Shown here piece by piece: positions 405 to 63,173 of a stretch of DNA of 64,000 bases (within the stretch, counting starts at the first letter, position 1; the number at the start of each line of letters is the position of its first letter). The notes beneath the pieces were generated by a model that saw only the letters and a list, made by a program, of their open reading frames with translations, did not search any database and was not told where the DNA came from. This stretch comes from Candidatus Magasanikiibacteriota bacterium (lineage in GTDB: Bacteria; Patescibacteriota; Patescibacteriia; Magasanikbacterales; GWA2-37-8). The stretch covers positions 464,414-528,413 of the forward strand of contig DAIOHD010000001.1 in assembly GCA_036744835.1 (NCBI GenBank). Reading direction: 5' to 3'. The translations under genes and the position numbers were made by a program.

Positions 405-450
405 TCATATCACTTAAATCACAAGCTCAAAATTCCAATAATTTATTGTT

Positions 451-3308: not shown

Positions 3309-3728
3309 TTAAATCTTTTTTAAAAGATCAGTTAAGTGCAGTTTACCAAAATTACCATTGTAAGTTTTGAGAGTTTTTTCCCATTTTTTGGGAAGCATTT
3401 TTTGCAATTCCGGCATTATAGTTCCGGGAGCAAATAAATAAACGACTTTGGCACTACTAACATTTTTGAGATTATTTTTGAAAGCAGTGAAAGATTCTTT
3501 TTGTAAAAAGTTTTTCATAACCCCCGCCTTATCACCGGACTGAAAAAATACATTACCATATTTGCCGGTTTGTTCCCTATCGGAAAATTTAGTTTTTTCT
3601 ACTGCAAAATCAGCGACTTTGTTTATTTCTCCGTCTTTTGCCAAATAAAAATCCGCGTTTAAATTTCCAGTCACGATAATCGCTGTACTATTTTTCTCAA
3701 ATTGAGGTAAGTTTTTTGGTATTTTCAT
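3309..3728 (-). CDS. hypothetical protein, possibly host-attachment / eRF1-like family
   Basis: N-terminal MKIPKN..TAIIVTGN.NADFYLAKDGEI and C-terminal LFAPGTIMPELQKMLPK resemble the Host_attach architecture; weak, from memory. Confidence 0.3.
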   Translation of the reverse strand: MKIPKNLPQFEKNSTAIIVTGNLNADFYLAKDGEINKVADFAVEKTKFSDREQTGKYGNVFFQSGDKAGVMKNFLQKESFTAFKNNLKNVSSAKVVYLFAPGTIMPELQKMLPKKWEKTLKTYNGNFGKLHLTDLLKKI

Positions 3729-3801
3729 AGAAGCTATGAATAGATTACAAAAATTGCAGAAATTGCAAAGATTGCAAAAATTAATAAAAAGAATAAAAAG
3801 A

Positions 3802-4257
3802 TTAAATATTTGAATCTGGGTTTTTAATATAACCAGCTTTTTTTTCCGCTTCCAAGGCCATTTGGTGTGCTTTCCAATAAATCATCCCTTTCTTCATTAA
3901 ATTTCTTTCTGTCATTTCATGTAAAATCAAACTTTTACGAAAATTTTCAGACATTGCTCTATTTTTAGGAACATTAGTGCATTTACAATCCAACGGATGA
4001 GTTGTCATCACCCAAATTTCATCAAGCGGAATATATTCACAAACATAACCATGACCACCATGATTAAACCAAGCCATAATATTATTTCTAATCCAATTAC
4101 CATCAACCTCGTATATTTTTACACCATTCTTTTTATAAAGAAATTTTTTCCAAGAACCAGATAATTTAAATTTTTTATCCTTTTTGTGTGCATTTTTTTG
4201 AATCTTAGCTTCAGTAATTGCCCAAAATTTAGCTCTGGTGTCTTTTTTAAATTTCAT
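3802..4257 (-). CDS. hypothetical protein
   Basis: ORF only; HGGHGYV and HEMTE motifs of unknown meaning. Confidence 0.3.
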   Translation of the reverse strand: MKFKKDTRAKFWAITEAKIQKNAHKKDKKFKLSGSWKKFLYKKNGVKIYEVDGNWIRNNIMAWFNHGGHGYVCEYIPLDEIWVMTTHPLDCKCTNVPKNRAMSENFRKSLILHEMTERNLMKKGMIYWKAHQMALEAEKKAGYIKNPDSNI

Positions 4258-4338
4258 ATTTACAATTTTTAATTAATTTTTAATAAATTTTCTAAACACC
4301 TGTCAATCTTTAAATCTTTTAATCTTGTAATCTAACTT

Positions 4339-6988: not shown

Positions 6989-7266
6989 TAGCTTAAGTTT
7001 ATCTCTTCATCATAAAATTTAAGATTAGCGATTAAACCTAATAAACTTTTAACTCAAAACTCAAATGTCAAATCTCAAAACTACAATTTAAAACCTTAAA
7101 ACCCTGTCATTGCAAGGAATGAAATGACGAAGCAATACCACAAAATTCAGAAAGCAGTGGGATTACTTCATCCGCTTTGCGGATTCGTAATGACACTTAT
7201 CGTTAGTTTTGACATTTAAGGTTGTGGTTTTAACTTTTAAAATTATTAAAAATTGGGATTTTCACC

Positions 7267-10379: not shown

Positions 10380-10577
10380 AAGCTGTACGCAATTTTTAAT
10401 TTTACAATTTTACAATTTTTAATTAATTTTTAATTATTAATTTTTAAAATACTTATCATTCTAAAATCTTCACCCTGTGAAATAATTTTTGCAATCTTTG
10501 CAATTATTGTACCACACCTAAAAACAAAGAGGCAACCCTGGGGCCACCTCTTTTTATTTAAATTATTTATTGTTTGT

Positions 10578-24700: not shown

Positions 24701-27700
24701 TAGAATCCTATCCTGGAAGTATACGCCAGTATTTTGGAAATTATAGTTTCTCCAAGAGCAAACCCGGACATGATAGTTGACGGTAAAGTTCGCACATAAG
24801 AGGTTTTGATATTGTTTTCCAACATCCCCAAAGCGGTTATTTCGCGCAAAGTTTTATCTTCATCTACAAAATAATTTCTTCCGCCGATTTTAGCAAGCAT
24901 CCCCGGATAAACCGTAGCTTGAGTGATGCTTTCGGAACTCTTCACATAATATGGCCATTCGGACAAGCCGATAGTTTTGGCTTTGAATTTATCACCAAAA
25001 ATAGTTTTGGCTGCAGATAGAGTGATTGGGTATAGAGTACTGTTCAAACCAACCACATACAATTTATCCGAACTTAGATATTTTACTACTTCCGAACCAG
25101 GACGATAAAACACATGATAAGGAGCTTCCATTGGTTGACTCAAACTATCAAAACAACTTTGCGTAATAGATTTATAATATTTGGAATAATTATCATCCGC
25201 ATTCCAAGATTTGAAAACATCACCATCGGAGAAATATCGATAATTCATGTTATTGTCAAGCACATAGATAGCCGGTTTGCCCTCAACTTTGATCATATCT
25301 CCAGGAGCCAAAATACTACAAGTATCTCCGACTGCAAAGGTTGATGTACTGACAGCATCCGGACTATAAGTAATACTGGAAAGATAAGTGTTGGTCATAC
25401 CACCATTGGAGGATCGGAACATCGCGTAAATAGTTTTTCTACCATTATTTGAAGAAAGGGTAAAACTTTTGGTAATAGCGTATTTTTCCCAAGTCGTATC
25501 AATAAAACTGGATTTTTCTGAAACTACCATTTCTGTAGCATTGGCAACATTGAAACTTACACTCACCGCTCGTTCCTTGGTGATAAGTGCGCCACCATTA
25601 ATCACTACCGGATTTCTACCAACTGTCGGGATAGTTAAAACAGGAGCCACGACAACAATCGGTGTACTACCGCCGCCACCACCGCCTCCGCCGCCACCAC
25701 CAACATAAGTTTGAGTGTAAGCGATGTAATCAGTAAAGTGCTTGGTCCAAATTACCAAATCAGAACCAACATTTATCCTACAATCACCTCCGGCAGATAG
25801 AGCATCTCCAACTACCTGAGTATCAGCGCTACAAGTAGCAGTAATTTTAGTGAAAGTTGTTCCGCGATAATAACCGGCAAGATATCCTGATTTACCAGGC
25901 ATCAAAATCCTGACTGCTTTATCAAAATTCAAAGCTGTGTCACCAAAGCCAAGAGATATTACCGTATTTACAGTTGCGCTATAACCGGAATCAGGAGTTA
26001 CCGATACAGAGCTGGTAGCTTCGATAATTGGTAAAGAGATAGTACCGTTCCAGGTGCTTGTTGGAGTTGTGACAGTCATACCAGCTGGGAAAGTTACTTG
26101 AACAATACCGATAGTTGTTGAAACATTAACAGTGATCGAACCGGGAATGGCACCAACTGTAGATGTGGTAGAAGTAGCACTAGTTGCCGAAATATCTAAA
26201 TATATTGTAGTTGTAATACTGTCTGATACAGTGACTGTGGAAGTTGCTGTACTGTTATCACCGATTAAAATAATTGGTGTAGTCGTATTACCCTGAGTAG
26301 AGGTTGTTAGATTTTGCTCATCCGAACCAACTGATAAAACCCAGACTGTTCTGGTGGTAGAAGCGGTGTTGGAAGAACCATCGGTTGCAGAATAAACAAC
26401 ATAATATGTTCCCGTGACGTTAGTATTGACTGGGTTAGTAACATCAACTGTTGTAGTACCGTAAACAGCATCATAAGCGGTAGCGCCAAAATCTGTATAA
26501 ACCGTACCTACATAAATCTTCATATCCTCGCCTATTTTGGTAATAACCGGAGGAGTTGTGTCTGGACCAACTTTACCGGCTTCAAAGGTATCAATAGCAT
26601 TTTGTAAAGTGATCACTTCAGCATCTACTGTGGCTTGTGAAGAAGTGTTAGTTACTCCTTGAGCATGAACAATTGCTGTATTCAATGTTGTTTTGGAACC
26701 AACAGCATATTGACCGGGCAAAGTTCCTTCTACAGCACTACCATAAATAATGGTCGCAGTAGCGATTTTTGCATCAAGAGATGAAGTGTTGGACAACGGT
26801 ACTTTACTGGCTTCAAAAATATCAATAGCTCCTTGCAAAGTAGTTACTTCAGCATCTACCGTAGATTGTGAAGAAGTATTGGTAACTCCTTGAGCGTGGA
26901 CAATAGCTATATTGAAAGTAGTTTTGGACCCCGCAATATAATTTATCAATGGAATATCACCTTCAACCGCTGCATCATAAGTACTGGTAGCTACGGCAAT
27001 TTTAGTATCAAGTGCGGACACATCAGATAGTCCTACTTTGCTGGCTTCAAAATTATCTATGGCGTCTTGTAAATCAATAACCGCTTGGTCAATGGTTGCT
27101 TGAGAAGAGGTATTGGTATAACTTTGCGCGGTTTCAATTTCCGGTAAAAATATTGCTTTGGATCCTGAAACATAATGTACAATCGGGATATCACCTTCAA
27201 CCGCTGTATCATAAGTGCTGGTAGCTATAGCGATTTTAGCATCAAGTGCGGACATATCAGATAACGGGATTACACTATCTATGAAATCACTTTCTGCTTG
27301 TTGTAAATTTAAAACTGCTCCATCAACTTCCGATTGTAAAGAAGTACTGGTATAACCCTCTGCTATTTGAATCGCTGATAAAAATGTATTTTTTGAACTG
27401 GTAGTATATTGTCCTGGTAAGGTTCCGGTTACCGCCACATTGTACATAGCGGTGGCAGTAGCAATTTCAGCATTTAATTCTGTCATATCCGCATAAGGAG
27501 CGATGTTCACAATGTATACTTTTTGTGTTCCATTTTCCGCAGTCACAGTATAATTTACCGAATTGGTAAAATTTTGAGATACATCGCTTTCCGGATTTAT
27601 TGTCGCCAAAGAGCTTTCCAATTCTATGCTTGGAGTCAAAGAAGTAACAACTGTACCGGTCGAAACACGTATATCAATAGTGGAGGTAATTCCTTCATTT

Positions 27701-30700
27701 ATTGTCCCATAGATAGTACCCTCTGTCGGTAAATAAATAGAAAAATTCTTGATATTATTATTGGAACTAGAAACTACGGTTAATGTGGCAATAGAAGGAT
27801 CGGAAACGTTGTCATATTGATCAATGAGATAAAGATAATAAATACCGGTACCAAACGGAACATCCACAAGAGTACTTGTCCCAAATTCATCATCAGAAAC
27901 ACGCATATAGTCACCTTTTGCAAACTGATCCGCAGAAGTTAATTCCGTTGAAGTGGCGAACCAAATATGACTATTTGGCAAACCAGAAGGGTTGATGACA
28001 ATTTGTACTGTATCTCCTGTTTTTTCACTAGTAGTATCTAATGGGAATACAGTATCTTGATTATATGGCCTAACAAAAAGTATAGCATCAGAAGGTTCGG
28101 AAACTCCGGTTTCATTATTTATAACATAAAGACGATAAGCACCAGAAATATCTGGAGCTTCTATAGTAGTAGAAGTTCCAACCGCCATAGTCATAGTCGC
28201 ACTTACTGCAAATGAAGAAGTAGTATAACTGACAGAATATGGAGCAAACCAAATAAAGTTTTCCGAAGCGGTAGAGGTGGTCAAAGGGATTATAGAATAC
28301 CATTCAACAGTACTTGAAACAGTAAAAAGTTCGTTTTGATCAGTAGGGGCCGGAGAATTAATAACGTTGATTTCCCTAAGATTTGCATCTGCACAATTGC
28401 CCGCTGTATCGCAAACCTGATAAACAATATAAAAAGTACCGGTGTTATTTGTATTAACGAAATTTATATATCCCTCAGGTAACTTTGCTGACCTAACTAT
28501 GTCAGATGATACATCTCCGTCAATATCATCTATAGCCGTAGCGCCAGCATCAACATAATTACTATTTTGATAAACAGTGGTAGTAGCTTCTCCAATCAAA
28601 GAAATTACCGGAGGGGTGTTGTCTACTGTTAGGGAAGCTATAGAATGAGTGGAAACATTGCCCACTATATCTACAATATAAATATAATAAATTCCTTCGT
28701 CACTTGGAACATTCATCCCTGTATAAGTACCGTCATAGGCCTTAGTCATAGTCGCACATTCATAAAATTGTTCCTGAGTAGTTAATCCGTCCGGAGCAAA
28801 CCAAACATTATTATCGGCATTACCAGAAGAGTTTATCTCGACCCAATTACCGCCAGAGATAATTTTTGACACTGGAAATACTACATCTTGAATTTCAGCG
28901 GTAAATACCGATACGGTATATTCTTTGGTAGTAACTTCGTCTTCAGCAGTTACCGTATAAATTTGCGGATTAGTAAAATCTTTTGGCAAACCGTCATTTT
29001 CCGGATATATAGTTGTTGATAAATATTTGCTTAGTTGTATTTCAGGTGTTAATGAACCTCTATCCGTTCCTAACGGCAAGTAACAATTGATATTAGCATC
29101 GGAAATATTACATTTATAATATGTGCTTGAAACAGTAAAACCAAAATTATCAATATTGGTACTATTGCTTGATAATATTGTCCAAGTAGCCAAAGATTGA
29201 TCGGAAACATTATTGTTTTTATCAATAATGTAAAGGTGATAGGTGCCGGTGGCTATAGGCGCCCAAGCTTGTCCCCCCATACCATCATCACCTTGATAAA
29301 AATTTCTCATATTTAAGGACTCTTCAAACTGCACACTAGAGGTTAGGCCAGCTGGAGCAAACCAGACATTGCTATATGGTAATCCTACAGGATTGATATT
29401 TATTAAAATATCCCCACCTGTTCGTATCGTGGAAGTTGAATTCGGAAAAACTTCATCTTGATTATCTGGTCCAAGCACAGTTAAAATCGCATTTGATGGA
29501 TCGGAAACATTACCATATAATATATCATCAACGACATACAAACGATAATTACCAGCTTTATTTGGAGCCTTAATCACATAATCTTCTTTCCAGCCACCTT
29601 TGGTCATATAATCATCTTCCACAAATTGTTCAACAGAAGTCATACCTTCCGGCGCAAACCACGCATTACCAACCCATCCTTCTATAGGGATAGTTATAGC
29701 AACATTTTCTCCAGGCAAACTACTGGTAGAAACTGGTAAAAATTCATTCTGTTTTAGTGTTTTTGTGACAGTAACCGAAGCATCCGATGGTCCAAAAATA
29801 TCGCCGACATTATTTATAACATAAACAAAATATTCTCCAACTCGTCCGGGAGCATCCATACCGGTATTTTGCCCGTTATCAGTTTTAGTGGTTGTCACAC
29901 CATTCAAATCAAACTGTTCTGTGGAGGTTAAACCGGCTGGAGCTAACCAAACTTGATTATCAAAATTACCGGAAGAATTAATATTAATCCAGCGATTTTC
30001 CGGATAAACAGTTTTGAAAGCCGGTAAAACTAAATTTTCAATATCTTCTTCAATTTCCACAGTCACTATATATTGTTTTATATCTCCACTTTCCGCTGTA
30101 ACTGTATAAACTACTGGATTAGTGAAATCTTGTTCAACCCCCTCTTCCGGACTAACTGTAGAATTAGTTCCTTTGGGGAAACTAATACTGGGAGACAAGT
30201 GTGTAACATCAATCTCTGGATCGTTTGGAATATAAACTTTGATGGTCGGACTCGGAGTAGCGGTTTCATCAATAACCCCCAAAATATCTCCGGTAAAATA
30301 AGAAGTTGAAAAATAAAAGTAAAAATTCCGAATACTATTATTCGCACTTGGTAAAATAGTCAAAGTAGATGTAGAAGCTTCGGAAACATTTCCGTATTCA
30401 TCAATCACATAAAAATAATATGTTCCTGTGGCAATGTTAAAATTAAAATTTATTTGATCTCCCATCGGACCAAGCATCCCCAAAGAAGTGGTAGGGCCAT
30501 CTTGGATAAAATCCGAAGAAGACACCATTCCCGCTGGTGCAAACCAAAACTGCATTTTCTCGTTTACGCTTGGATCAGATACTAAAACTAAATTTACATA
30601 ATTATAAGTGCTGGTAGATTCGGTAAATATTAAATTTTGATTTGTCGGGCCGGTGACGGTCAAAGTAGCATCAGAAGGATCGGAAAGCGCCACAGCTCCT

Positions 30701-33700
30701 GGGCCCTCACCTTCTCCACCTTCAGTTGCCAATAATACAAAGAATTTATATTCCCCGGCTAAAAACGGCACAGTGGTGGTAGTTGAAGAAGCAGTATAAG
30801 GAAAAACTGCCGAAACCCTGTCAGCTGAAGTTTCTCCTTCACCTATATCGGGAAAACCTTTAAATAAAGCTTCCAAATCATCTTTGTATTCTTCCGGGGC
30901 AAAAAATCCGCCCACCATAATATATTCATCATAAATCGCTAGATTTGGTGCAAAAGACACTACTCCACCAACAGCTTGAACTATGGTAGACGAAGAAAAA
31001 AGAGCATTATTTTCCGGTTTAACTCCAAGCAAAGCTAACGAAGGGGCTGAAACTATACCTTCTTCGCTAATCACATACAAACGATAAAAACCAGGTTGAG
31101 TAGGTGCAATAATCTCAATTGCATCCCCTACCGCCATGGTCATAGTAGCGCTTTGTACAAATTCTTCTACACTTGTAAACAAGGTAGTGGACGGAGCAAA
31201 CCAAATCTCATTATTAACATCTCCCGAAGAATTTATTGACACATTAGATCCACCGTTTACAGTTGTGTAATCTGGAAAAACTTGATCTTGAAGTAACGGA
31301 CGATCTATAACATTCACTTCTCTCCAAAATACACCACTCCAATTACCAGCCTCATCCCAAGTTTCATATCCTATACTGTAAGTTCCGGTGACACTGGAAT
31401 CTATATAATCTCCGCCTCTAGCGACTTCAACATCTATAGTAGTGCTGACTCCATCAATCAAATCCCAAACAATAGTGCCAGCATCTACTTCTATCCCTGT
31501 ATTAGTCAAACTTTCACCTTGGTAAATATAAGCCGGGTTATCACCTAAAATTTCTATAGTTGGTGGGGTTGCATCAACTGTCAAAGTCGCATTTGAAGGA
31601 TCACTAACAAAGCAGGTGGCATGATCATTGTTACAATCTATATCTGGAAATTCCGGACTGGGAGTTAAAACATAAAGCTTATAATGACCCTCAAGCGAAG
31701 GAGCATATAGAAAGGAAAAAGATCCATTTTCCGCCTTAGTCATTGTTGAACCGTCTATATAAAATTCGGTAGGGTCAGTTAAACCAGCAGGGGCAAACCA
31801 AACAGAATTGGAAACATTTAATGAAGGATTGATAGATACATAGCCACTGGAACCGACTCTTACTGGTCCTGGAAAAACAAAATTTTGCACTCCAGCCTCA
31901 AAAACAATTACCGTATATTCTCTTTGGTCGCCATTTTCTGCGGTAACAGTATAAACAACGGGATTAAAAAAATCCTGCAACACATCACTTTCCGGTTCAA
32001 CTGTAGCAAAATCGGAAATTTTAAATGTCGGTGTTACTGAACTGAGATCAGAGCCAGTTGGAACATAAACATTTATATTTGTTCCGCTGGTTATCCCAAA
32101 ATAATTAACATTATCAATAGAAAGAGAAAAACTATCAATATAATTACTCGCACTTGGTAAAACCGTCAAAATTGCATCAGATGGTGAAGAAACATTTTCA
32201 TACGGATCTATAACATAAAGATGGTATGTTCCAGTAGTAATGGGCGCTCTCAATTGGGTAGATAATCCACTTTGTGCCTGTGTCATTGTTTCTCCGGCAA
32301 CAAAATCCAAAATTGTCGCCATACCCGGAGGGGCAAACCAAACTTGGTTTAATTCATTTCCGGAAGAATTAATTGAAATAGAAGGCATTTTACTTGTTTC
32401 TTTGGTCACACTGGTAGAAGCGGTAAACACATCATTTTGCAAATTCAATCCGGTCACAGTCAAAATAGCAGTAGAAGAATTTGATAAAACATAAGCTTCC
32501 GGGCCTGATTCTCCCATAATAAAAGCAGCGATATAGATATTATAATCTTGTGCAGAATAAGGCGCTTGCATCTGATAAGTTTCAGAATTATATGAGAAAG
32601 GAGGCAGTGAATCAAAAGAAACCGTATTACTAACCATCTGTCCAGAATTAAAATCCGGTAAATTTCCCATTATATAAGCAAAAGGATTGTCTGTGTTTAT
32701 AGGTACCAAAATAGCCAAAAATGTTACCCCGTTTATTATTTCACTGGAATTTCCATTTATAGGAAACATTTCTCCAGAAGCGGAGCTAGTAGACGAAGGC
32801 AGGGTTATGTTTTGATTGTAAGGTTTAACACTCAATATTGCTTTTGAAGGATCTGATACCATCCCTGTATCTTCATTTACTAAATAAACTCGGTAAAAAC
32901 CGGCGGTGCTCGGAGAAGAAATAGAAGTTGCAGTACCTGAAGCTACGGTCATGGTAGCACTAACAACGAATTGTTCGGCTTGTGTAAATTCTAAAGTTGC
33001 CGGAGCAAACCAAATAGTGTTGGTAGCTGCAGTTGAAGTCACACTGACTGATGAAGAATGATCCACTTCCAAAGATATTGAAAAAACTTCATCTTGGTCA
33101 TTTGGTTTAGGAATGCTCGGACCAAAACCGGCCATGCTGGTAAAAACTCCAAAACCATTGGTATAAGAAAGATAAAGATTTCCGGTGTTACTTACAACAT
33201 TCAATACACCGTCATAATCTGTCATCGGTGAACTGACAGGATTTATAATATCAAACACAACAGGAGTAACAGAATTGTCAAATATACCGGAACTGGCAGA
33301 TGTCTCGGTTAAGGTAATATTTTCTATATCGCTTCCCGTGCCCCCATCTGTAGTGGTAATTGTAACATAAATCGTTTCAATAGTACTTGAAATAAAATTT
33401 GCAGTTGGATCAGTGATAGAAATAATAACAGAATCCGTATCGGTATTATAAGGTGCACTGTCAAAACCGCCAGAAGCTTCTTTGATAATTTTACCCGGCA
33501 TAGCTCCTGTAGAAAAAACCCTACCATTATTAATATAATCTCCTAAAACAACTAGATCGTAATCAAAAAAATCAAAATCTCCGTTATTAGTAAAATTGGT
33601 CGTGGTTATATTTCCTGCTAATATATGATTTCCTTCATTGCTAATAGTAAGACTATAGAAATTGACATTTCCTGATCCGCCCAAAGTTCTACTAGCAGGA

Positions 33701-46733: not shown

Positions 46734-46866
46734 GCTCCCGGGGTCGGCGCTTCGCTATTCGAAGTCGTCGCTACGCTCCTCTCACAAAAACCTTCGGGTT
46801 TTCGTGGACTTTCCTCAGCAAGAGAAAACTCCCGTTTTCTCCCTTTCCCGTTCGAATCCTCACCAC
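46734..46866. ncRNA. tRNA-linked structured element, copy A (3' of tRNA-Asn)
   Basis: Left end gctcccggggtcgg-CGCTTCGCT-ATTCGAA duplicates the tRNA-Asn acceptor-3'/T-stem and T-loop with a 9-nt insertion. Hairpin1 cacaaaaacc-TTCG-ggttttcgtg; CU-rich linker; hairpin2 gagaaaac-TCCC-gttttctc; cctttccc. Right end GTTCGAATCC is complementary to the left ATTCGAA. Confidence 0.55.
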
Positions 46867-46908: not shown

Positions 46909-46909
46909 G

Positions 46910-46981
46910 CTCCCGGGGTCGGATTCGAACCGACGACCAATTGATTAACAGTCAACTGCGCTACCGCTGCGCTACCCGGGA
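46910..46981 (-). tRNA. tRNA-Asn (GTT)
   Basis: Manual cloverleaf: TCCCGGG TA GCGC AGCGGTA GCGC A GTTGA CTGTTAA TCAAT TGGTC GTCGG TTCGAAT CCGAC CCCGGGA G; 72 nt, no encoded CCA. Confidence 0.8.
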
Positions 46982-48965: not shown

Positions 48966-49727
48966 TTATTTATTTTGTTTTTTTATTCTCTTATTACGGG
49001 CTAGTAAAAATCCCATGGTTTTGTCAAAATGTGACGGAAAAACCTCCACTGAAAAACCGTTTTCTCGCAAAATATTTTCTATAACTTTAAAATTTCTATT
49101 TTCACTTTGATGATACTCCAAAAAAATATTTTCTATTTGGGAAAAATTTTCTTTCTCCAGATTTTCAAAAATCTCATATTCCCCTCCTTCAATATCCATT
49201 TTGAGAAGGGAGATTTTTTTTATTTTATATTTCTTGATAAAATCCACCAAACTCAAACCTTTTATTTTTTGAACTTGGTCACTTATCGGTAAAAGTGAAT
49301 GATTGTGACTATCTTCACTTAAAAAAATATTGATTTCTCCTGTCTCCCTGGTCAAAGCTACATTTTCAGCTTTAATATTTTTGAAATTATTCTCGGCTAA
49401 ATTTTGTTTCAAAAAATCAAAGTTTTCTTTTACCGGTTCTAAGGCGTAAATTTTGATTTTTGAATTTAAAACTGCTGTCCAAAGAGAAAAATAACCGGCA
49501 TGTGCCCCAACATCTACTATCGCTCCATTAGAATTCTGAATAATCTCTTGTGCACTACGATATTCGCGAAATTTAAAAACCTCGTTGACAATACTCTCAT
49601 CAACGTCATCGCGCAAAATCAAATTGACTTTTTTACTATTAATAATTTGCTCTCTTTTGTGCATAACTATATTATACAGGAAATTAAACAATAAAAAAAG
49701 CCCCAAAAAGGGGCAAAAAAATATCAA
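48966..49727 (-). CDS. FkbM family methyltransferase
   Basis: VDVGAHAGYFSLW. Confidence 0.6.
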   Translation of the reverse strand: MIFFCPFLGLFLLFNFLYNIVMHKREQIINSKKVNLILRDDVDESIVNEVFKFREYRSAQEIIQNSNGAIVDVGAHAGYFSLWTAVLNSKIKIYALEPVKENFDFLKQNLAENNFKNIKAENVALTRETGEINIFLSEDSHNHSLLPISDQVQKIKGLSLVDFIKKYKIKKISLLKMDIEGGEYEIFENLEKENFSQIENIFLEYHQSENRNFKVIENILRENGFSVEVFPSHFDKTMGFLLARNKRIKKQNK

Positions 49728-50062
49728 AAATAAGCTTTGATGATCTCTTCGGGAAACACGATCTCCCCAAAGAGTTTAATCATGGTCTTGCCGAGCTCTT
49801 TGAGATTGGCAAGATTCGCAGAATTAAGCTCTCTAATCTCTTTTTCTAGAGAACTAAATTCGGCCACCATACTTTTGAAAAAACCATGATTTTCGATTTC
49901 TTGGTTGATCATTTCCCGGTACAAAACCAAACGGCGACGCAGTACTCTCATCCTCCTGACCACCCGCAATGAAGGCGTGGGTAGTAAAGAAAAGAGTTCT
50001 TCGGCCTTTTGAGAAAGTTGAAGAAGTTCTTCAAACTTCTCTTTTTCAAAATAATTGACCAT
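49724..50062 (-). CDS. hypothetical helical protein
   Basis: ORF overlapping the FkbM gene start by 4 nt (operon). Confidence 0.35.
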   Translation of the reverse strand: MVNYFEKEKFEELLQLSQKAEELFSLLPTPSLRVVRRMRVLRRRLVLYREMINQEIENHGFFKSMVAEFSSLEKEIRELNSANLANLKELGKTMIKLFGEIVFPEEIIKAYF

Positions 50063-50140
50063 GATGGATACCTCCCTAAAAATAGTAATGAACGATAATT
50101 TATAATTTTACTCTTAGAAAATTGTTTTGTCAAGATAAAC

Positions 50141-50165
50141 AAAAAAACCTTTGAAAAAGGTTTTC
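50141..50165 (-). terminator. hairpin terminator 3' of element B (copy of the tRNA-Gln terminator)
   Basis: aaaaaaaccttt-gaa-aaaggtttt. Confidence 0.55.
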
Positions 50166-50175
50166 TGTTTATAAG

Positions 50176-50318
50176 TTCCGAGGCTTGGCGCTTCGCTACT
50201 CGAAGTCGTCGGTCTTCGGCCTCCTCCTTGGAAAACCTTCGGGTTTTCCAATACCTTTCCTCCTCATAGAGAAACCTCCCGGTTTCTCCCTTCCCCAGTT
50301 CGAGTCCAAGCTCAAGAC
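50176..50318. ncRNA. tRNA-linked structured element, copy B (3' of tRNA-Gln), with its own minus-strand promoter and terminator
   Basis: Left end ttccgaggcttgg-CGCTTCGCT-ACTCGAA duplicates the tRNA-Gln 3' end with the same 9-nt insertion. Hairpin1 ttggaaaacc-TTCG-ggttttccaa; linker cctttcctcctca; hairpin2 gagaaacc-TCCC-ggtttctc; right end TTCGAGTCCAAGC. Minus-strand TTGAAA-16-TATAAT at 50320..50347. Confidence 0.6.
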
Positions 50319-50319
50319 A

Positions 50320-50347
50320 ATTATATAAACAAAAAAACCTTTTTCAA
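50320..50347 (-). promoter_or_regulatory. sigma70-like promoter (TTGAAA-16-TATAAT) oriented into element B
   Basis: Minus strand reads ccTTTGAAAaaggtttttttgtttaTATAATtgtcttgag; the -35 lies in the loop of the tRNA-Gln terminator hairpin. Confidence 0.45.
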
Positions 50348-50366
50348 AGGTTTTTTTGTTTATAAG

Positions 50367-50437
50367 TTCCGAGGCTTGGACTCGAACCAAGATAGACAGC
50401 TTCAAAGGCTGTTGTCCTACCTTTAGACGACCTCGGA
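50367..50437 (-). tRNA. tRNA-Gln (TTG)
   Basis: TCCGAGG TC GTCT AAAGGTA GGAC A ACAGC CTTTGAA GCTGT CTAT CTTGG TTCGAGT CCAAG CCTCGGA A; U1-A72; 71 nt. Confidence 0.8.
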
Positions 50438-50442
50438 ATATC

Positions 50443-51351
50443 TTAAACTTTCAGTTGTTTTCTCATTGCTAGGCCACTGCTAATAAAGGTCAACAACAGA
50501 ACACTGACAAATTGTATTCCAACCAACAAAATAATATGCGAATTATAATAATTTGTCAAGGTGAAACCATTGGAAAATACAATGGACAAATACGGATCCA
50601 ACCAATGTAACGCTAAATAAATAATACCAAAATTTACACTAACACTAAGTAAGGCAAAAATAAACGCTTCAATAATATAAGGTCCGCGAATAAACCAGGT
50701 AGAAGCTCCAACTAATCTTTTGATAGAAATTTCTATTCTTTGTGTATAAATAGCTACTCTGACAGTGTTAAAAATAATCAAAAAAGAAATAATTGCAAAA
50801 AGTGACGCCAAACCAAAACCTACTCGCTCGATACGGTTGGTAATATTTTGAATTTTTTCTATGCCCTCTTCGTTTCCTTCAAAACTTTTTGTTTCTATTA
50901 AAGCATCGTATTCCGGAACGTCTACTGCTTGTAATACTTTTTTATAATCTTCCGGTTCTCTAGTTTTTATAATCAAAGTTGGACCAAACGGATTTTCCTC
51001 TAATTCATCCAAAGCTAACAAAACCTCCGCACTTAACTTATGACGATTTTTAAAAGATTCCAAGACTTCTTCCCTAGAAACATCGGTCATTTCGGTAATT
51101 TCCGGCAACATGGTTAAATATTTTTTTATCTCTTCCAAATTTTTATCCGTAGTTTCAGCTTTAAAATACAGAGAAATATTAATCTGTTCTTTTACCAAAC
51201 CGGTAGCTTGTTTAGTCAAAATATCAACACTCCATAAAATATTTACCGATAAAAGCATGAGAACCAAAATAAAAACCGTCATGGAAGAAAGTCCAAAATT
51301 TCTTCCTAGGTCTTGTAAAGCATATTTTATTACTCGATAAATAGAATGCAT
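50443..51351 (-). CDS. ftsX: cell division permease-like protein FtsX
   Basis: Four TM with a large extracytoplasmic loop; immediately downstream of ftsE. Confidence 0.7.
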   Translation of the reverse strand: MHSIYRVIKYALQDLGRNFGLSSMTVFILVLMLLSVNILWSVDILTKQATGLVKEQINISLYFKAETTDKNLEEIKKYLTMLPEITEMTDVSREEVLESFKNRHKLSAEVLLALDELEENPFGPTLIIKTREPEDYKKVLQAVDVPEYDALIETKSFEGNEEGIEKIQNITNRIERVGFGLASLFAIISFLIIFNTVRVAIYTQRIEISIKRLVGASTWFIRGPYIIEAFIFALLSVSVNFGIIYLALHWLDPYLSIVFSNGFTLTNYYNSHIILLVGIQFVSVLLLTFISSGLAMRKQLKV

Positions 51352-51353
51352 AT

Positions 51354-52034
51354 TTATAAACGATATTTTCCGGTTAATTCATCACTTACTATTTCTCCAC
51401 CTCTTAAAGTAATAACTCGACGACGTAATTCATTCACTATTTCTCGATTGTGTGTAGCCAACAAAATAGTAGTGCCGAATTCATTGATTTTTTTAAGAAT
51501 TTCTATAATTTCAACGGTATTCAAAGAGTCTAAATTACCGGTCGGTTCATCGGCAATAATAATTTTTGGCCTGTGCACCAAAGATCTGGCTATCGCCACT
51601 CTTTGTTGTTCACCTCCAGATAATTGCCTTGGATAACGATCTGTTTTATTTCCTAAACCAACTATGTCCAAAACTTGAGGTACAATTTTTTTTATTCGAT
51701 AACTTTTTTCTCCAGCTACTTCTAAAGCAAAAGAAACGTTTTCAAAAACCGTTTTCTTCGGTAAAAGTTTAAAATCTTGAAAAATAACTCCTATCTGACG
51801 TCGCAGATAAGGAATTTCAGAACTGGAGATTTTGGTAATATCCCAATCACCTATTGTTATCTTGCCTTTGGTGGGTTTTTCTTCGGCTATCAACAATCTT
51901 ACCAAAGTTGTTTTTCCCGTTCCACTTTGTCCAACAATTGAAACAAATTCGCCCGCCTCTATATGCAAAGAGATGTTACGTAAACCAACCGATTCGGTTG
52001 AATAAATTTTGGTAACTCCATCAAGTTTAATCAT
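51354..52034 (-). CDS. ftsE: cell division ATP-binding protein FtsE
   Basis: MIKLDGVTKIY start, GQSGTGKTT, LSGGEQQRVAIAR. The ORF-track start 52055 is probably too long. Confidence 0.85.
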   Translation of the reverse strand: MIKLDGVTKIYSTESVGLRNISLHIEAGEFVSIVGQSGTGKTTLVRLLIAEEKPTKGKITIGDWDITKISSSEIPYLRRQIGVIFQDFKLLPKKTVFENVSFALEVAGEKSYRIKKIVPQVLDIVGLGNKTDRYPRQLSGGEQQRVAIARSLVHRPKIIIADEPTGNLDSLNTVEIIEILKKINEFGTTILLATHNREIVNELRRRVITLRGGEIVSDELTGKYRL

Positions 52035-52189
52035 AGTGATATTATTATAACACAAAAAAAATAAACGAGCTAATCCCGCTTATTGTGGACAAAATTTTAT
52101 TTAAACCATCGTTTAGCCCGTCATCACTTGAACCCTCTATCAGAATCATCAAACTGATGTTTGTGGTTTACCTGCCCGACATGCCTTTG

Positions 52190-52262
52190 AGCCATCTCGG
52201 GGATTCGAACCCCGGACCTACGGTTTACGATACCGTTGCTCTACCAACTGAGCTAAGATGGC
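52190..52262 (-). tRNA. tRNA-Thr (CGT)
   Basis: GCCATCT TA GCTC AGTTGGTA GAGC A ACGGT ATCGTAA ACCGT AGGTC CGGGG TTCGAAT CCCCG AGATGGC T. Confidence 0.8.
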
Positions 52263-52291
52263 GTGTCTTTGGCGGGCGGGCGCGATACCAT

Positions 52292-52316
52292 CGTTCTACC
52301 ACTGAACTAAAGGGGC
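52292..52316 (-). pseudogene. truncated tRNA 5' fragment (acceptor plus D-arm only)
   Basis: GCCCCTT TA GTTC AGTGGTA GAAC G, then no anticodon or T arm; followed by GC-rich filler and then tRNA-Thr. Confidence 0.35.
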
Positions 52317-52384
52317 TTAGGCAAAGGCGGGTAGGTCTAATCTGAGCGGGATAGGAATCTCACTGCTCGTCCGCCTTAAACGGA

Positions 52385-52465
52385 CTGCGCTTTGAGAAAC
52401 CTTCGGGTTTCTCAAGAACTCTTCCTCCTCAAGAGAAAACTCCTGTTTTCTCCCTTTCCCTTCAT
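52385..52465. ncRNA. tRNA-linked structured element, copy C (core only; directly 3' of tRNA-Gly)
   Basis: Hairpin1 ttgagaaacc-TTCG-ggtttctcaa; linker ctcttcctcctca; hairpin2 gagaaaac-TCCT-gttttctc; cctttccc. Lacks the tRNA-derived end pieces. Confidence 0.5.
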
Positions 52466-52492
52466 CCTTGCTTGCCCGCCAGGCTTCGTCTG

Positions 52493-52563
52493 AGCGAGTA
52501 ACGAGAATCGAACTCGCGTCTCATGCTTGGGAAGCATGCATACTACCATTGTACTACACTCGC
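52493..52563 (-). tRNA. tRNA-Gly (CCC)
   Basis: GCGAGTG TA GTAC AATGGTA GTAT G CATGC TTCCCAA GCATG AGAC GCGAG TTCGATT CTCGT TACTCGC T. Confidence 0.75.
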
Positions 52564-52590
52564 GCAAACGAAGCCGGCGGGAGAAGGATA

Positions 52591-52615
52591 CATACTACCG
52601 ATGTACTAATCCCGC
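52591..52615 (-). pseudogene. second truncated tRNA 5' fragment, just upstream of tRNA-Gly
   Basis: GCGGGAT TA GTAC ATCGGTA GTAT G (D-arm near-identical to tRNA-Gly), then TATCCTTCTCCCGCCGG with no anticodon stem. Confidence 0.35.
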
Positions 52616-52620
52616 ATTAA

Positions 52621-52651
52621 AACCCGCCTTATTTAAGGGCGGGATGTTTTT
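52621..52651. terminator. bidirectional terminator hairpin
   Basis: aacccgcc-ttatttaag-ggcggg-atgttttt. Confidence 0.65.
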
Positions 52652-52653
52652 AT

Positions 52654-53715
52654 TTATTCTGTAACAATTGGGACTGTTTGATTATTATCGAAAGGATTGT
52701 GAATTTTAGAATAAAATTTTATCTCCACATTTTTTAAATAAGCATTCATATACTTTTCAAAAGTTGGAAGCATGAAAAGGATATGACTGGCATTAACAGA
52801 AGTTTGATTAATCCATTTATCTGTTTCATCTTTTACTCTTTCGTTTTTTATATCATTTACTTTTACAATATGATAACCAAATTCGGTTTCCACTAAATTT
52901 TCCGAAAGCTCTCCTTTTTTTAAAGCAAAGACCGCTTCTTCAAATTGAGGCACCATTTCTCCCTTGGTAAACCAACCCAATTCACCACCTGTTTGAGCCG
53001 TACCATCTTCTCCGTAGGTCATAGCCATTTCTTCAAAATTAGCTCCGTTTTTAATTTGATTCAAAACAGCTTCGGCATTATTTCTTACTTCTTCTATAGA
53101 TTCTTTATCAGTTTGTATTTTTTCATTTACTTTATTTTGAAGGACAAAAGGCCTGATAACTTTTTCTTCATAAGCTTTCATGTTCCAACCATATCTTTTG
53201 ATAAGTTCTTTTTCTAAAACATCCGCCGATTCAAACTGCTCCAAAACCTGATTCTTCAACTCTTCTACATCTTTTTTTTCAACTTTTATTTCCATTTTTT
53301 TAGCAATCTGAGAAACCATCACGTTATTGACTAAACGCCAAACAACTTGATCAGACATTTGCTCCTCGGATAACTCCATCGCTGTCCCATTGGCTTCTTC
53401 TTCATAGGCTTTCATAATTTTAATAGCTTTCATATCATCAAGATAATTGGTATAAGATACTTTCTGTCCATCTACTGATAATAAGGATAAGTGTAAAGCT
53501 TTGGCTATAAAATAAGAAAAGCCGTCCATAGCCCCTGAACGAACACGCACGATTCCCCAAACACTTCCCAAAGTTAAAATAACTGCCAAAAAACCAACAA
53601 TACTGTATAAAAATAATTTTTTATTTTTATCAACTGTTGTAACTACTGGCAAAATCTCCTTGACCTCTTGGTCTAAAACCTCTTGTTGTTCTTTATTTAA
53701 TGGTAAATTTTCCAT
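52654..53715 (-). CDS. membrane-anchored parvulin-type peptidyl-prolyl isomerase (PrsA/SurA-like)
   Basis: GELGWFTKGEMVPQFEEAVFALKKGELS...FGYHIVKV. Confidence 0.7.
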   Translation of the reverse strand: MENLPLNKEQQEVLDQEVKEILPVVTTVDKNKKLFLYSIVGFLAVILTLGSVWGIVRVRSGAMDGFSYFIAKALHLSLLSVDGQKVSYTNYLDDMKAIKIMKAYEEEANGTAMELSEEQMSDQVVWRLVNNVMVSQIAKKMEIKVEKKDVEELKNQVLEQFESADVLEKELIKRYGWNMKAYEEKVIRPFVLQNKVNEKIQTDKESIEEVRNNAEAVLNQIKNGANFEEMAMTYGEDGTAQTGGELGWFTKGEMVPQFEEAVFALKKGELSENLVETEFGYHIVKVNDIKNERVKDETDKWINQTSVNASHILFMLPTFEKYMNAYLKNVEIKFYSKIHNPFDNNQTVPIVTE

Positions 53716-63016: not shown

Positions 63017-63173
63017 GTAGAAAAATTTTTAATTTTTAATTTTACAATTTTTAGTGAATTTTTAGTAAATTTTCAATTTCGTATCCCATCTAATCTTTAA
63101 ATCTTTCAATCTTGTAATCTTACAATTCTCAAATGTACTATGGCAAATTTAAGCCAAAAAGTCAATCTACATG

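Follow-up and report, generated by a model that had tools for sequence, protein, structure and literature searches.

A possible small insertion module with a conserved structured core at the 3' ends of tRNA genes in Magasanikbacteria-like Patescibacteria

Element B, a unit of about 190 bp located 3' of the tRNA-Gln(UUG) gene on the minus strand of the window (the whole 64-kb stretch of DNA analysed), is one copy of a family whose members follow at least 23 kinds of tRNA in their hosts, which are Magasanikbacteria-like Patescibacteria. The explanation we prefer, with a confidence somewhat short of even, is that B represents, without any cargo, a small non-autonomous module that settles at tRNA 3' ends by insertion or duplication and that would exist as a structured RNA mainly in the form of a tRNA trailer. 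As judged from Rfam, from phage, plasmid and viral collections and from the searched literature, the family is apparently undescribed. The parts of element B and of the tRNA gene in front of it are as follows.

50366..50437, minus strand: tRNA-Gln(UUG) gene (ARAGORN; Rfam tRNA model, 64.2 bits; repeat alignment)
50366-50379, minus strand: DR1 (direct-repeat copy 1), the final 14 nt of the tRNA-Gln gene
50325..50365, minus strand: trailer TTATAAAC and terminator hairpin 1 (terminator scan)
50320..50347, minus strand: promoter-like TTGAAA-16-TATAAT directed into element B (scores 11/12)
50298..50316, minus strand: arm CTTGAGCTTGGACTCGAAC, antisense to the 3' part of tRNA-Gln
50289-50296, minus strand: conserved GGGGAAGG, directly before core hairpin H1 (alignments A2 and A4)
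50269..50288, minus strand: core hairpin H1, GAGAAACC GGGA GGTTTCTC (alignments A2 and A4; pairing)
50252..50268, minus strand: purine-rich junction TATGAGGAGGAAAGGTA, including the family-conserved GAGGAA (invariant columns in A2 and A4)
50228..50251, minus strand: core hairpin H2, TTGGAAAACC CGAA GGTTTTCCAA (pairing, covariation)
50211..50221, minus strand: variable small hairpin H3, GGCCGAAGACC (differs between copies)
50189..50210, minus strand: a' segment GACGAC-TTCGAGT-AGCGAAGCG (arm/a' pairing table, type i)
50198-50204, minus strand: sense copy of the tRNA-Gln T-loop within the a' segment, pairs with the arm
50190-50196, minus strand: GCGAAGC mini-hairpin within the a' segment
50175..50188, minus strand: DR2, displaced copy of the tRNA-Gln 3' end, CCAAGCCTCGGAAC
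50135..50174, minus strand: second trailer and terminator (terminator 2, with the loop inverted against that of terminator 1)

An earlier, sequence-only reading of this DNA had described a 48-bp imperfect direct repeat at 50138-50185 and 50333-50385. The repeat does exist, but its limits had to be redrawn: the best local alignment pairs 50135-50188 with 50325-50379 (54/55 nt, 50 identical, a single 1-nt gap). On the minus strand each repeat copy contains CCAAGCCTCGGAAC, the trailer TTATAAAC and a long A/T-rich terminator hairpin, where CCAAGCCTCGGAAC is made up of the T-stem 3' strand, the acceptor 3' strand, the discriminator and one further base. The three central bases of the terminator loop are inverted between the two copies, and for this reason a 30-nt, 100% complementary inverted repeat (I5) was detected as well. 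The repeat is not a generic sequence, since the 13-mer TTCCGAGGCTTGG occurs exactly twice in the 64 kb; a 22-mer spanning the trailer likewise has exactly two occurrences. As had been proposed, the two copies flank the element, enclosing the conserved core between them, and at the end of B the tRNA-Gln 3' strand, trailer and terminator are repeated exactly. The suggestion that B is a duplicated tRNA-Gln gene with a replaced 5' body is not supported; the 5' end of B is not leftover tRNA body, it is the antisense of the 3' part of tRNA-Gln. The only tRNA-derived sequences in B are the T-stem 3' strand, the acceptor 3' strand and the T-loop; neither ARAGORN nor the Rfam tRNA model called the element as a tRNA, and there is no cloverleaf. 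Nor is B a one-off clone of tRNA-Gln, as each member of the family carries the 3' end of its own tRNA.

To search the window for the core we used a 24-base degenerate pattern. It gave exactly three matches (46791-46845, 50236-50292 and 52400-52456), all on the minus strand, on which the core, correctly placed between the repeats by the earlier reading, also folds. Each match lies directly downstream of a tRNA gene, and 100 shuffles gave zero matches. The two sister copies of the window are the following.

46734..46866, minus strand: copy A, behind tRNA-Asn (46909-46981); 104.8 bits
52343..52470, minus strand: copy C, behind tRNA-Gly(CCC) (52492-52563); 82.4 bits

Copy A has an arm, core, a' segment and a copy of the tRNA-Asn 3' end (CCGACCCCGGGAGC). 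Copy C has a decayed arm, and the acceptor strand matched by its 3' end belongs to a disrupted outer tRNA-Gly and not to the adjacent tRNA. Altogether the family amounts to 63 matches (51 distinct) in the window and 51 Patescibacteria loci: the three copies of the window, 25 copies from genomes (23 loci) and 35 matches from metagenomes (31 loci). The pattern matches in L007 and L019, judged by eye to be unrelated, were left out. The element is on the strand of the tRNA, and in most copies 35-108 nt separate the core match from the closest upstream tRNA. The common order of parts is tRNA, terminator, arm, core, T-loop remnant and tRNA 3'-end copy, the last one often decayed. The direct repeat of the tRNA 3' segment around the insert, 54/55 nt in B, is 9-24 nt long in most other copies.

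The core consists of two or three hairpins, of which H1 and H2 are 99.6% paired across the alignment, with 14 of their 18 pairs altered on both sides. H1 is 100% paired (7/8 pairs altered on both sides) and H2 99.2% paired (7/10). This level of pairing and covariation was reached by none of 500 shuffles, and slid controls collapsed. The one-sided changes are G-U on the tRNA-sense strand, and in H2 the G-U variants occur on that strand only. At the position of H3 other copies have hairpins of differing sequence and length. The core contains several GGA and GGAGG motifs. Element B and its ortholog in the related genome L021 are identical at 255 of 260 positions, and between the B orthologs core and spacer are ~98% conserved, compared with 82-87% identity of the flanking genes. 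It must be noted that most copies were collected by a sequence pattern, thus the conservation of the core is partly an effect of the collection.

In B the arm reads as the reverse complement of tRNA-Gln from G53 through T-loop and T-stem 3' strand into the acceptor 3' strand, and throughout the family the arm is the reverse complement of the upstream tRNA's own T-loop and T-stem 3' strand. The exact antisense match has a median length of 11 nt for tRNAs with a core behind them and of 0 for tRNAs without; in the near-identical L021 ortholog the arm matches tRNA-Gln over 14 nt, and the duplex of the arm with its own tRNA has an energy of -31.2 kcal/mol. The mean duplex energy is -20.7 kcal/mol with the own tRNA vs. 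-12.7 kcal/mol with other tRNAs. The segment from G53 to the arm folds as a single hairpin (-15 to -61 kcal/mol across the copies); in B the trailer and terminator hairpin 1 are the centre of this long hairpin of tRNA 3' third and arm, whose folding energy is -46.1 kcal/mol. In 29 of 32 loci the sequence of the arm matches the upstream tRNA better than it matches the element's own 3' end. The helix between arm and a' segment is kept in 34 copies, and a tandem G-A motif is fixed in all 15 type ii copies; in L017 a longer hairpin takes the place of the a' mini-hairpin. We also considered that the arm might be a sense remnant of the T-stem 5' strand. This was rejected because the non-palindromic T-loops (B, L008, L015b) are antisense, and the arms of L047 and L036 are antisense to the T-stem 3' and acceptor strand for ~16 and ~25 nt, respectively. 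Arm mismatches have no clear wobble bias (9 wobble, 7 A-C type and 21 other in 13 positions of 29 loci).

Comparison of the loci revealed considerable variation. Copy C is absent at the orthologous tRNA-Gly(CCC) gene of L021, and the L021 ortholog of B is without the second copy of trailer and terminator. As with tRNA-integrating elements, there are thus occupied and empty sites among related genomes, and a direct repeat of the tRNA 3' segment flanks the insert. The tRNA-Gln gene of L001 is followed by another insert, between 18-nt repeats and devoid of the core. L005 has tandem copies of the element, L020 partial tRNA copies and L012 a glyoxalase gene between tRNA and core. The arm, core and distal copy of L016 are preceded, on their upstream side, by at least 7.6 kb with restriction-modification and toxin-antitoxin genes. 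Intervening genes of this sort may have arrived later, through unrelated insertions at a tRNA hotspot. In the core-less variant of L037 the frame of arm and a' segment is kept and the core is replaced by a simple hairpin. L014, L001, L040, L047, L002 and L018 all combine an intact core with a distal tRNA-end copy that has been truncated or has diverged, which suits the remnant of a displaced target better than a functional 3' end. The pair L047 and L039 hints that compensatory T-stem changes of the tRNA are mirrored in the arm and not in the distal copy.

Searches for known families and for linked enzymes were largely negative. At the gathering score, Rfam 15 found five tRNAs and nothing else in the window; E-value scans of 49900-50600 and 52000-52700 gave only weak matches, none of which reached two-thirds of the gathering score of its family. 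A Pfam scan of 10 neighbouring ORFs detected no tyrosine or serine recombinase, and all-against-all clustering of the ORFs of 22 loci yielded no recurrent protein family outside syntenic orthologs; neither approach found a transposase or reverse transcriptase linked to a copy. A recombinase was also absent from the eight ORFs scanned of the L016 island, a locus which stops short of the tRNA. Copies A and B are followed by ORFs that have no relation to each other. The element had no matches in viral, phage and plasmid collections, and we found no description of it in the searched literature, where the nearest topic is that of the group I introns at position 35/36 of Patescibacteria tRNAs (PMC13011429). 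A group I intron is not supported here: the Rfam scans gave no group I match, and the upstream tRNA is uninterrupted. The ends of the element pair as in a retron ncRNA, but there is no adjacent reverse transcriptase gene. For a hammerhead ribozyme, the CUGAGGA of copy A is variable in other copies and, by eye, the GAAA/stem II arrangement is missing. Copy A contains GAGGAAAGUCC, which we take to be equal to the RNase P CR-I motif; other copies keep GAGGAAAG only and no RNase P model matched, so we regard this as a coincidence. A 22-aa ORF in B (ATG AGG AGG ... TAG) was rejected as coding sequence because indels shift its frame in copy A and the hairpins covary.

It is instructive to compare the family with known systems. 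With tRNA-integrating elements and islands it shares the intact tRNA at one flank, the displaced 3'-segment copy at the opposite flank, the extent of the repeat from the T-loop to about the end of the tRNA, as well as tandem arrays, variable intervening genes and strain differences. Williams reportedly distinguished, in 2002, sublocation classes of elements inserting in the part of tRNA genes between T-loop and 3' end. Unlike such elements, the family has no integrase, mostly only ~130-190 bp are inserted, the conserved part is a structured non-coding module, the core goes with at least 23 tRNAs, and there is an inverted copy of the target, the arm. Similarly to sRNAs derived from tRNA 3' external transcribed spacers (3'ETS-leuZ of E. 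coli), the element is directly 3' of a tRNA, on the same strand and usually promoterless, and it could be released from the tRNA precursor; it differs from them by the usually intervening terminator, by being multi-copy and highly structured, and by its tRNA 3'-end copies.

An imperfect palindrome of ~100-140 nt with paired ends and a variable or structured centre is also typical of integron attC sites and of the CTX phage attP site, in which the folded strand can mimic a double-stranded target. In our family, however, the sequence of the centre is conserved. Visual inspection showed no fit of the ends (ATCGAAC ... GTTCGAT or GTGAGATT) to the RYYYAAC/GTTRRRY boxes, which type ii copies lack; there were no cassette arrays in the 8-kb loci (one copy per tRNA), no integrase nearby, and neither an IntI nor a Xer context. 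Like MITEs and the Rickettsia palindromic elements, the copies are short, numerous, gene-less and foldable, and some would be transcribed together with host genes. Their T-loop-derived ends of 8 nt are inverted, yet they vary with the tRNA, being copies of each target tRNA and not fixed terminal repeats as in MITEs, and all members of the family have a single orientation and a position strictly 3' of tRNA genes. If TCGA or TTCGAA were duplicated (4-6 bp), this would be indistinguishable from the palindromic T-loop itself. In tRNA-like mimics such as tmRNA and the bacterial Y RNA-like YrlA (for the latter see PMC4201824) T-arm/acceptor-derived sequence is likewise joined to another structured domain; our element, by contrast, is without an acceptor helix of its own, and it is multi-copy and tRNA-specific. 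The tRNA, tmRNA and Y RNA models of Rfam did not call it, and neither did ARAGORN. We know of no mobile element or sRNA class with a mirror-image arm matched to its target.

According to the insertion-module explanation, the distal tRNA-end copy would be the original end of the target, displaced as at the far junction of a tRNA-integrated element, and this would account for its decay beside an intact core. The arm and the proximal tRNA end with its terminator would form one long palindrome, which may owe its origin either to copying after the terminator hairpin folded back or to one palindrome half converting the other. The core would be active as a folded single strand, most likely as RNA; this would be, for the most part, a 3' trailer RNA produced when the tRNA terminator is read through, and in B a start at the local promoter is also possible. 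Spread from tRNA to tRNA could have relied on the near-universal T-loop sequence and on an enzyme encoded elsewhere in the genome. Our best guess is that the core RNA acts in cis, in maintenance of the element or in processing of the read-through transcript. Several observations do not fit easily. The lack of a linked recombinase, transposase or reverse transcriptase speaks against a mobile module, and so does the occurrence of one core with matched ends behind so many kinds of tRNA, compared to the one tRNA of a classical integrating element. The strong conservation at orthologous loci would suit a vertically inherited, host-beneficial RNA gene equally well.

The sequence-only reading had regarded B as a self-contained transcription unit producing a standalone sRNA. 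The promoter that it had noticed is indeed a good sigma-70-like site (11/12), with the TTGAAA in the loop of terminator hairpin 1, and together with terminator 2 it makes a product of ~180-190 nt possible for B; an own promoter is nevertheless not a feature of the family, nor is such a product a defining property of the element. Within 90 nt upstream a promoter-like site was present only in B and its L021 ortholog (10/12 there) and in none of the 26 other copies. In 19 of 28 copies the core match is preceded, at a distance of 12-34 nt, by the end of a terminator-like hairpin, and 10 of 28 have such a hairpin downstream by a crude scan, thus an own promoter plus terminator was not kept across the 28 copies examined. 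An efficient terminator directly upstream and the lack of a promoter argue against much RNA being made from the element, a point that counts against the insertion-module explanation, too; in L004 the element is joined directly to the CCA end of tRNA-Val with no terminator between them. The predicted fold of the isolated B transcript is only marginally more stable than that of shuffled sequence (z = -1.5). We consider it rather unlikely that B is a stand-alone gene, transcribed from its own promoter to terminator 2 into a trans-acting sRNA of ~180 nt, whose closing helix and 3' tail would mimic the T-arm and acceptor strand of tRNA-Gln, with the family being tRNA-specific partner RNAs kept by the host. 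The compensatory changes in the core, the retained arm/a' helix, the conservation of core and spacer above that of the flanks and the GGA/GGAGG motifs would all agree with such a gene. On the other hand, its tRNA-like 3' tail is lost or decayed in many copies with intact core, the arm fits the upstream tRNA better than the element's own 3' end, and one variant has exchanged the core for a simple hairpin.

It is also possible, though we are doubtful about it, that arm, core and a' segment together serve, as a hairpin in the tRNA-sense strand of the DNA, as a site of recombination or priming, similarly to integron attC, the CTX phage attachment site or single-strand origins, and that the T-loop target is shown in double-stranded form to a recombinase encoded elsewhere. 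Inverted and direct target copies around a structured centre of ~110 nt would be expected of such a site, which would not require a promoter, and tandem copies, intervening genes and presence/absence differences would follow naturally. GCGNAGC mini-hairpins and tandem G-A pairs are stable in DNA, too, so their presence is compatible with this reading. It is less compatible with the absence of an integrase or HUH nuclease gene near the copies examined and of matches in the viral, phage and plasmid collections, and the G-T wobble variants tolerated in H2 are more typical of RNA. The orientation of the element always follows the tRNA, which does not discriminate, since the same would be expected of a DNA site if tRNA genes run with replication. 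Very improbable, in our opinion, is that B is functionless debris, a decaying partial tRNA-Gln duplicate left by unrelated rearrangements at a tRNA hotspot. The decay of the distal copy and the richness of tRNA 3' flanks in these genomes in partial tRNA copies, nested tRNAs and assorted insertions would be in line with this, but one core is shared by 63 matches that follow at least 23 tRNA kinds, two hairpins are held paired by compensatory changes, and the core is more conserved than the adjoining protein-coding DNA; for the core, this explanation is close to refuted.

A further idea, which we regard as a long shot, is that the family represents a novel type of RNA or mobile module, coupled to tRNAs, which makes a copy of its target in place of a fixed end. 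A terminated or read-through pre-tRNA would fold back at the terminator, and its 3' third would be copied into the antisense arm. The RNA might then alternate between two folds, one with a normal tRNA and a separate four-way-junction RNA, the other with the tRNA T-arm locked in the long hairpin and the 5' acceptor strand paired with the distal 3'-end copy, i.e. a giant tRNA-like molecule with the conserved core in place of the T-loop. For the 311-nt read-through RNA of B both the centroid and the minimum-energy prediction have this second form (z = -7.3). If the idea were true, the module could be a read-through sensor, a functional RNA linked to tRNA and in broad terms similar to tmRNA, or the intermediate, in RNA form, of a mobile element that templates itself.

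The genomes of Patescibacteria are tiny, and they have nevertheless retained many copies of the element, more conserved than the adjoining genes. Retention and conservation together suggest either active, unrecognised DNA spread among tRNA genes or an unrecognised RNA linked to tRNA production. The family offers a testable case for the nesting, duplication and disruption of tRNA genes in reduced genomes. To annotation pipelines the elements appear as 'intergenic', and they could mislead the prediction of tRNAs and genomic islands in metagenome-assembled genomes.

Behind many tRNA genes lies a conserved, structured module of tRNA sense, placed between an inverted and a direct copy of the 3' end of the respective tRNA. 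Element B, the copy behind tRNA-Gln, had been described in the sequence-only reading as a stand-alone sRNA unit cloned from tRNA-Gln; the observation was confirmed, the interpretation was supported in part. The direct repeat flanking B is real, its best alignment (50135-50188 against 50325-50379) covering 54/55 nt with 50 identical positions. On the minus strand both repeat copies read CCAAGCCTCGGAAC and TTATAAAC and go on into a long hairpin rich in A/T; CCAAGCCTCGGAAC comprises the 3' strands of the T-stem and of the acceptor, with the discriminator and a single further base. The hairpin loop has opposite orientation in the two copies, and it is because of this inversion that a perfect 30-nt inverted repeat was also reported. 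The tRNA-end 13-mer and the 22-mer including the trailer each occur twice, and no more, in the 64-kb window. The promoter-like TTGAAA-16-TATAAT pointing into B is present (50347..50320, minus strand, 11/12), and the same scan detected terminator 1, the hairpin after tRNA-Gln.

Features of the element B locus, in minus-strand order
50366-50437, minus: tRNA-Gln(UUG), last 14 nt = repeat copy 1
50325-50365, minus: trailer and terminator 1
50317-50324, minus: spacer
50298-50316, minus: arm (antisense stretch before the core), CTTGAGCTTGGACTCGAAC
50289-50296, minus: conserved purines, GGGGAAGG
50269-50288, minus: hairpin H1
50252-50268, minus: junction, with GAGGAA inside
50228-50251, minus: hairpin H2
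50211-50221, minus: hairpin H3
50189-50210, minus: a' (T-loop remnant segment), GACGAC-TTCGAGT-AGCGAAGCG
50175-50188, minus: distal tRNA-end copy, CCAAGCCTCGGAAC
50135-50174, minus: trailer and terminator 2

The 5' part of B is not a leftover tRNA body: the arm repeats, in reverse complement, G53, the T-loop, the 3' strand of the T-stem and some of the acceptor strand of the tRNA. The terminator loop (TTTGAAAAA vs. TTTTTCAAA) is flipped between the window's copies at 50325-50365 and 50135-50174, and likewise when the window is compared with L021, the locus carrying the ortholog of B (orthologous terminator, 1800-1850). This small inversion alters the -35-like hexamer of the putative promoter.

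Nor is B a single clone of tRNA-Gln, since it belongs to a family found behind many tRNA genes, with three copies in the window alone, of which A follows tRNA-Asn, B tRNA-Gln and C tRNA-Gly(CCC). A degenerate pattern of the core, which holds H1 and H2, had three matches in the window and none in 100 shuffles. In a collection with one genome per species the core pattern found 23 loci, 21 of them real members, mostly from Magasanikbacteria or Patescibacteria metagenome-assembled genomes, several of which had more than one copy. A looser pattern yielded 31 metagenome loci, and covariance model R1 gave 63 matches (51 distinct), including diverged copies in which H1 has another sequence or the loops contain additional hairpins. 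The strict core pattern did not match viral contigs, and BLAST found no match in phage and plasmid collections. Synteny with the window was seen for L021 and L001, which places the window in the clade of these family members.

H1 and H2 are 99.6% paired in alignment A5, with both sides changed in 14 of 18 pairs; A5 had been fitted to the model, and a pattern fixing the loop-adjacent bases supplied most of its members; the outer H2 pairs, at positions which the pattern left free, account for most of the changes. The observed covariation values were reached by none of 500 shuffles, and sliding one partner by 1-3 columns collapsed the signal. One-sided pair changes give G-U on the tRNA-sense strand and would give C-A on the opposite one, therefore the folded strand is the tRNA-sense strand. 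H3 varies among copies from GCGNAGC to hairpins of 20 nt. Arm and a' pair in type i copies as ATTCGAA with TTCGAAT, and the pairing is preserved in variants such as ACTCGAA/TTCGAGT and AGTCGAA/TTCGACT; in type ii copies (15/15) AAUCGAAC and GUGAGAUU form six Watson-Crick pairs, four before and two after a tandem G-A. The predicted fold of the unit is thus a closing helix capped by three hairpins.

The arm follows the tRNA in front of it. Its exact antisense match to the upstream tRNA has a median length of 11 nt and lies 33-62 nt beyond the tRNA end; for tRNAs without a core behind them the median is 0. The mean duplex energy of the arm was -20.7 kcal/mol with its own tRNA vs. -12.7 with other tRNA kinds, and the gap was smaller with the distal copy (own -14.6, others -11.9). 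The upstream tRNA is a better pairing partner for the arm than the element's own 3' end at 29 of the 32 loci. The segment from G53 to the arm end is predicted to form a single long hairpin with the terminator loop at its centre (dG -15 to -61 kcal/mol), in which the T-loop is paired to 99%, the T-stem 3' strand to 89% and the acceptor 3' strand to 55%. The distal copy is often diverged or truncated beside an intact core (L014/L027, L001/L044, L040, L002, L018). At L047 the arm matches the T-stem of the present tRNA, and the distal copy retains a T-stem variant found in the related genome L039.

By the criteria of the window promoter scan, applied up to 90 nt upstream, a promoter-like site was found only in B (11/12) and its L021 ortholog (10/12), and in none of the 26 other copies. 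The promoter proposed for B thus does not extend to the family. In 19 of 28 copies the core match is preceded by a terminator-like hairpin, which ends 12-34 nt ahead of it; behind the distal copy a crude scan found a terminator in 10/28, and it missed the weak-GC terminator 2 of B. At L004/L033 the element sits directly on the encoded CCA end of tRNA-Val, without a terminator, and the distal repeat is 24 nt, CCA included. From this pattern of promoters and terminators, the RNA, if made, must usually derive from the tRNA transcript.

Members of the family have been gained and lost, stand in tandem in places, and at some loci are separated from the tRNA by other genes. The orthologous tRNA-Gly(CCC) of L021 is a plain gene without the element. 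B and its L021 ortholog are identical at 255 of 260 positions from tRNA start to distal copy, three of the five differences being the flipped terminator loop; the flanking genes are 82-87% identical, and L021 lacks a counterpart of terminator 2 of B. Just behind B the window has a small ORF (49724-50062, 112 aa, without a Pfam match), in place of which L021 has unrelated sequence (49704-50134 of the window against 1153-1655 of L021); the genes on both sides are conserved, so the ORF region is a variable slot beside the distal repeat. L005/L029 have a tandem pair of elements, L008 and L018 extra partial 3' modules, and L020 the tRNA-Ser 3' end in three successive versions. A glyoxalase-family gene separates tRNA-Ser from arm, core and distal copy at L012, and at least 7.6 kb including restriction-modification, Vsr and HigB genes lie upstream of the arm/core/tRNA-Asn-end unit at L016. 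There, at ~450-1700 (minus-strand reading), a ~75-bp inverted repeat (ATTGGTTGCGGGGATATATTGGATTTAGTTCGAACGGAG...) surrounds a ~1.1-kb segment, which holds a YunG/deaminase-like gene immediately upstream of arm and core and may be invertible or mobile. L037 has no core: its tRNA-Ala precedes a terminator and an arm, and then come a simple hairpin, CGAGTGAGATT and a copy of the tRNA end. The tRNA-Gln of L001 carries a different, hairpin-rich insert, bracketed by 18-nt repeats of the stretch from T-loop to 3' end; terminator and arm follow, without a core. This insert (6990-7260, minus strand, tRNA-Gln(UUG)) is ~150 nt, with direct repeats GATTCCAAGCCTCGGAAC, and contains a CTGCCTGCCGGCAGGCAGG hairpin, which recurs with one base different in place of the core in L037; it may represent a second small-insert family at the same T-loop-to-3'-end site. 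No recurrent recombinase or other protein family was found adjoining the elements.

We tentatively read the element as a small non-autonomous insertion or duplication module, in which the distal copy would be the original, displaced tRNA end, and the arm would have arisen, and would be kept matching, by fold-back copying or conversion in a palindrome seeded by the terminator hairpin. The core would act as RNA, chiefly from read-through of the tRNA terminator, with the local promoter possibly used as well in B. For the 311-nt read-through RNA of B the prediction favours an alternative fold (z = -7.3), in which the long hairpin would hold the T-arm and 3' end of the tRNA, and the distal copy would pair with the 5' acceptor strand; this fold may or may not form in the cell, since the tRNA would fold first during transcription.

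A stand-alone, trans-acting sRNA is unlikely, as promoters are missing elsewhere in the family and the 3' tail decays. We regard as similarly improbable that the element is a folded single-stranded DNA site for recombination or priming: the geometry fits, but no enzyme is known. That it is inert debris is highly improbable, as the core's conservation contradicts it. The element fits best among tRNA-targeting insertion elements, as one that has a novel structured core. Like tRNA-integrating islands it has a duplicated tRNA 3' segment and varies between strains, but no integrase was found with it. Judged by sequence, its position behind the tRNA would be that of tRNA 3'-spacer sRNAs. Membership tests assigned it to none of the Rfam families, nor to tRNA, integron attC, retron RNA or group I introns, and no description of it was found in the literature searched.

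Other tRNA genes nearby are nested or decayed. An intact tRNA-Thr(CGT) (52189-52262) is nested in the anticodon loop (35/36) of a second tRNA-Thr(CGT)-like gene (52130-52316, minus; 5' part 52283-52316, 3' part 52132-52170), the insert being bounded by CGCCCGCCCGCC ... GTCGGGCAGG. At the L021 counterpart (3690-3935), where the insert is made up of three repeated CCCGCCCGCC...GGCGTGTCGGGCAGG hairpin units, the outer gene would form a perfect cloverleaf on removal of the insert; the outer gene of the window is in decay. Position 35/36 is where group I introns have been reported in Patescibacteria tRNAs (PMC13011429); by comparison with Rfam the tRNA-Thr insert is not a group I intron. An outer, decayed tRNA-Gly lies within 52343-52615 (minus), with the acceptor strand GCGGGAT in its 5' part (52583-52615) and the perfect complement ATCCCGC within 52343-52368, where element C ends. 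The outer gene is broken up by an insert whose inverted ends are CCCGCCGGCTTCGT / ACGAAGCCTGGCGGG and which carries the intact tRNA-Gly(CCC) (52491-52565); L021 has one uninterrupted tRNA-Gly at this position. It seems that a gene of the same identity came in and took the place of the resident tRNA-Gly gene.

Elsewhere in the window, 26570-33000 contains dense families of diverged direct repeats in apparent very large repeat-domain genes, with units of 127-140 nt and many of 40-60 nt spaced at multiples of about 300, 550 and 600 nt. The A/T-rich motif TTTACAATTTTTAATTAATTTTTAAT recurs intergenically (4244-4292, 10394-10442, 63026-63074 and others; repeat families D6 and D9) and could be a shared regulatory or promoter-region element.
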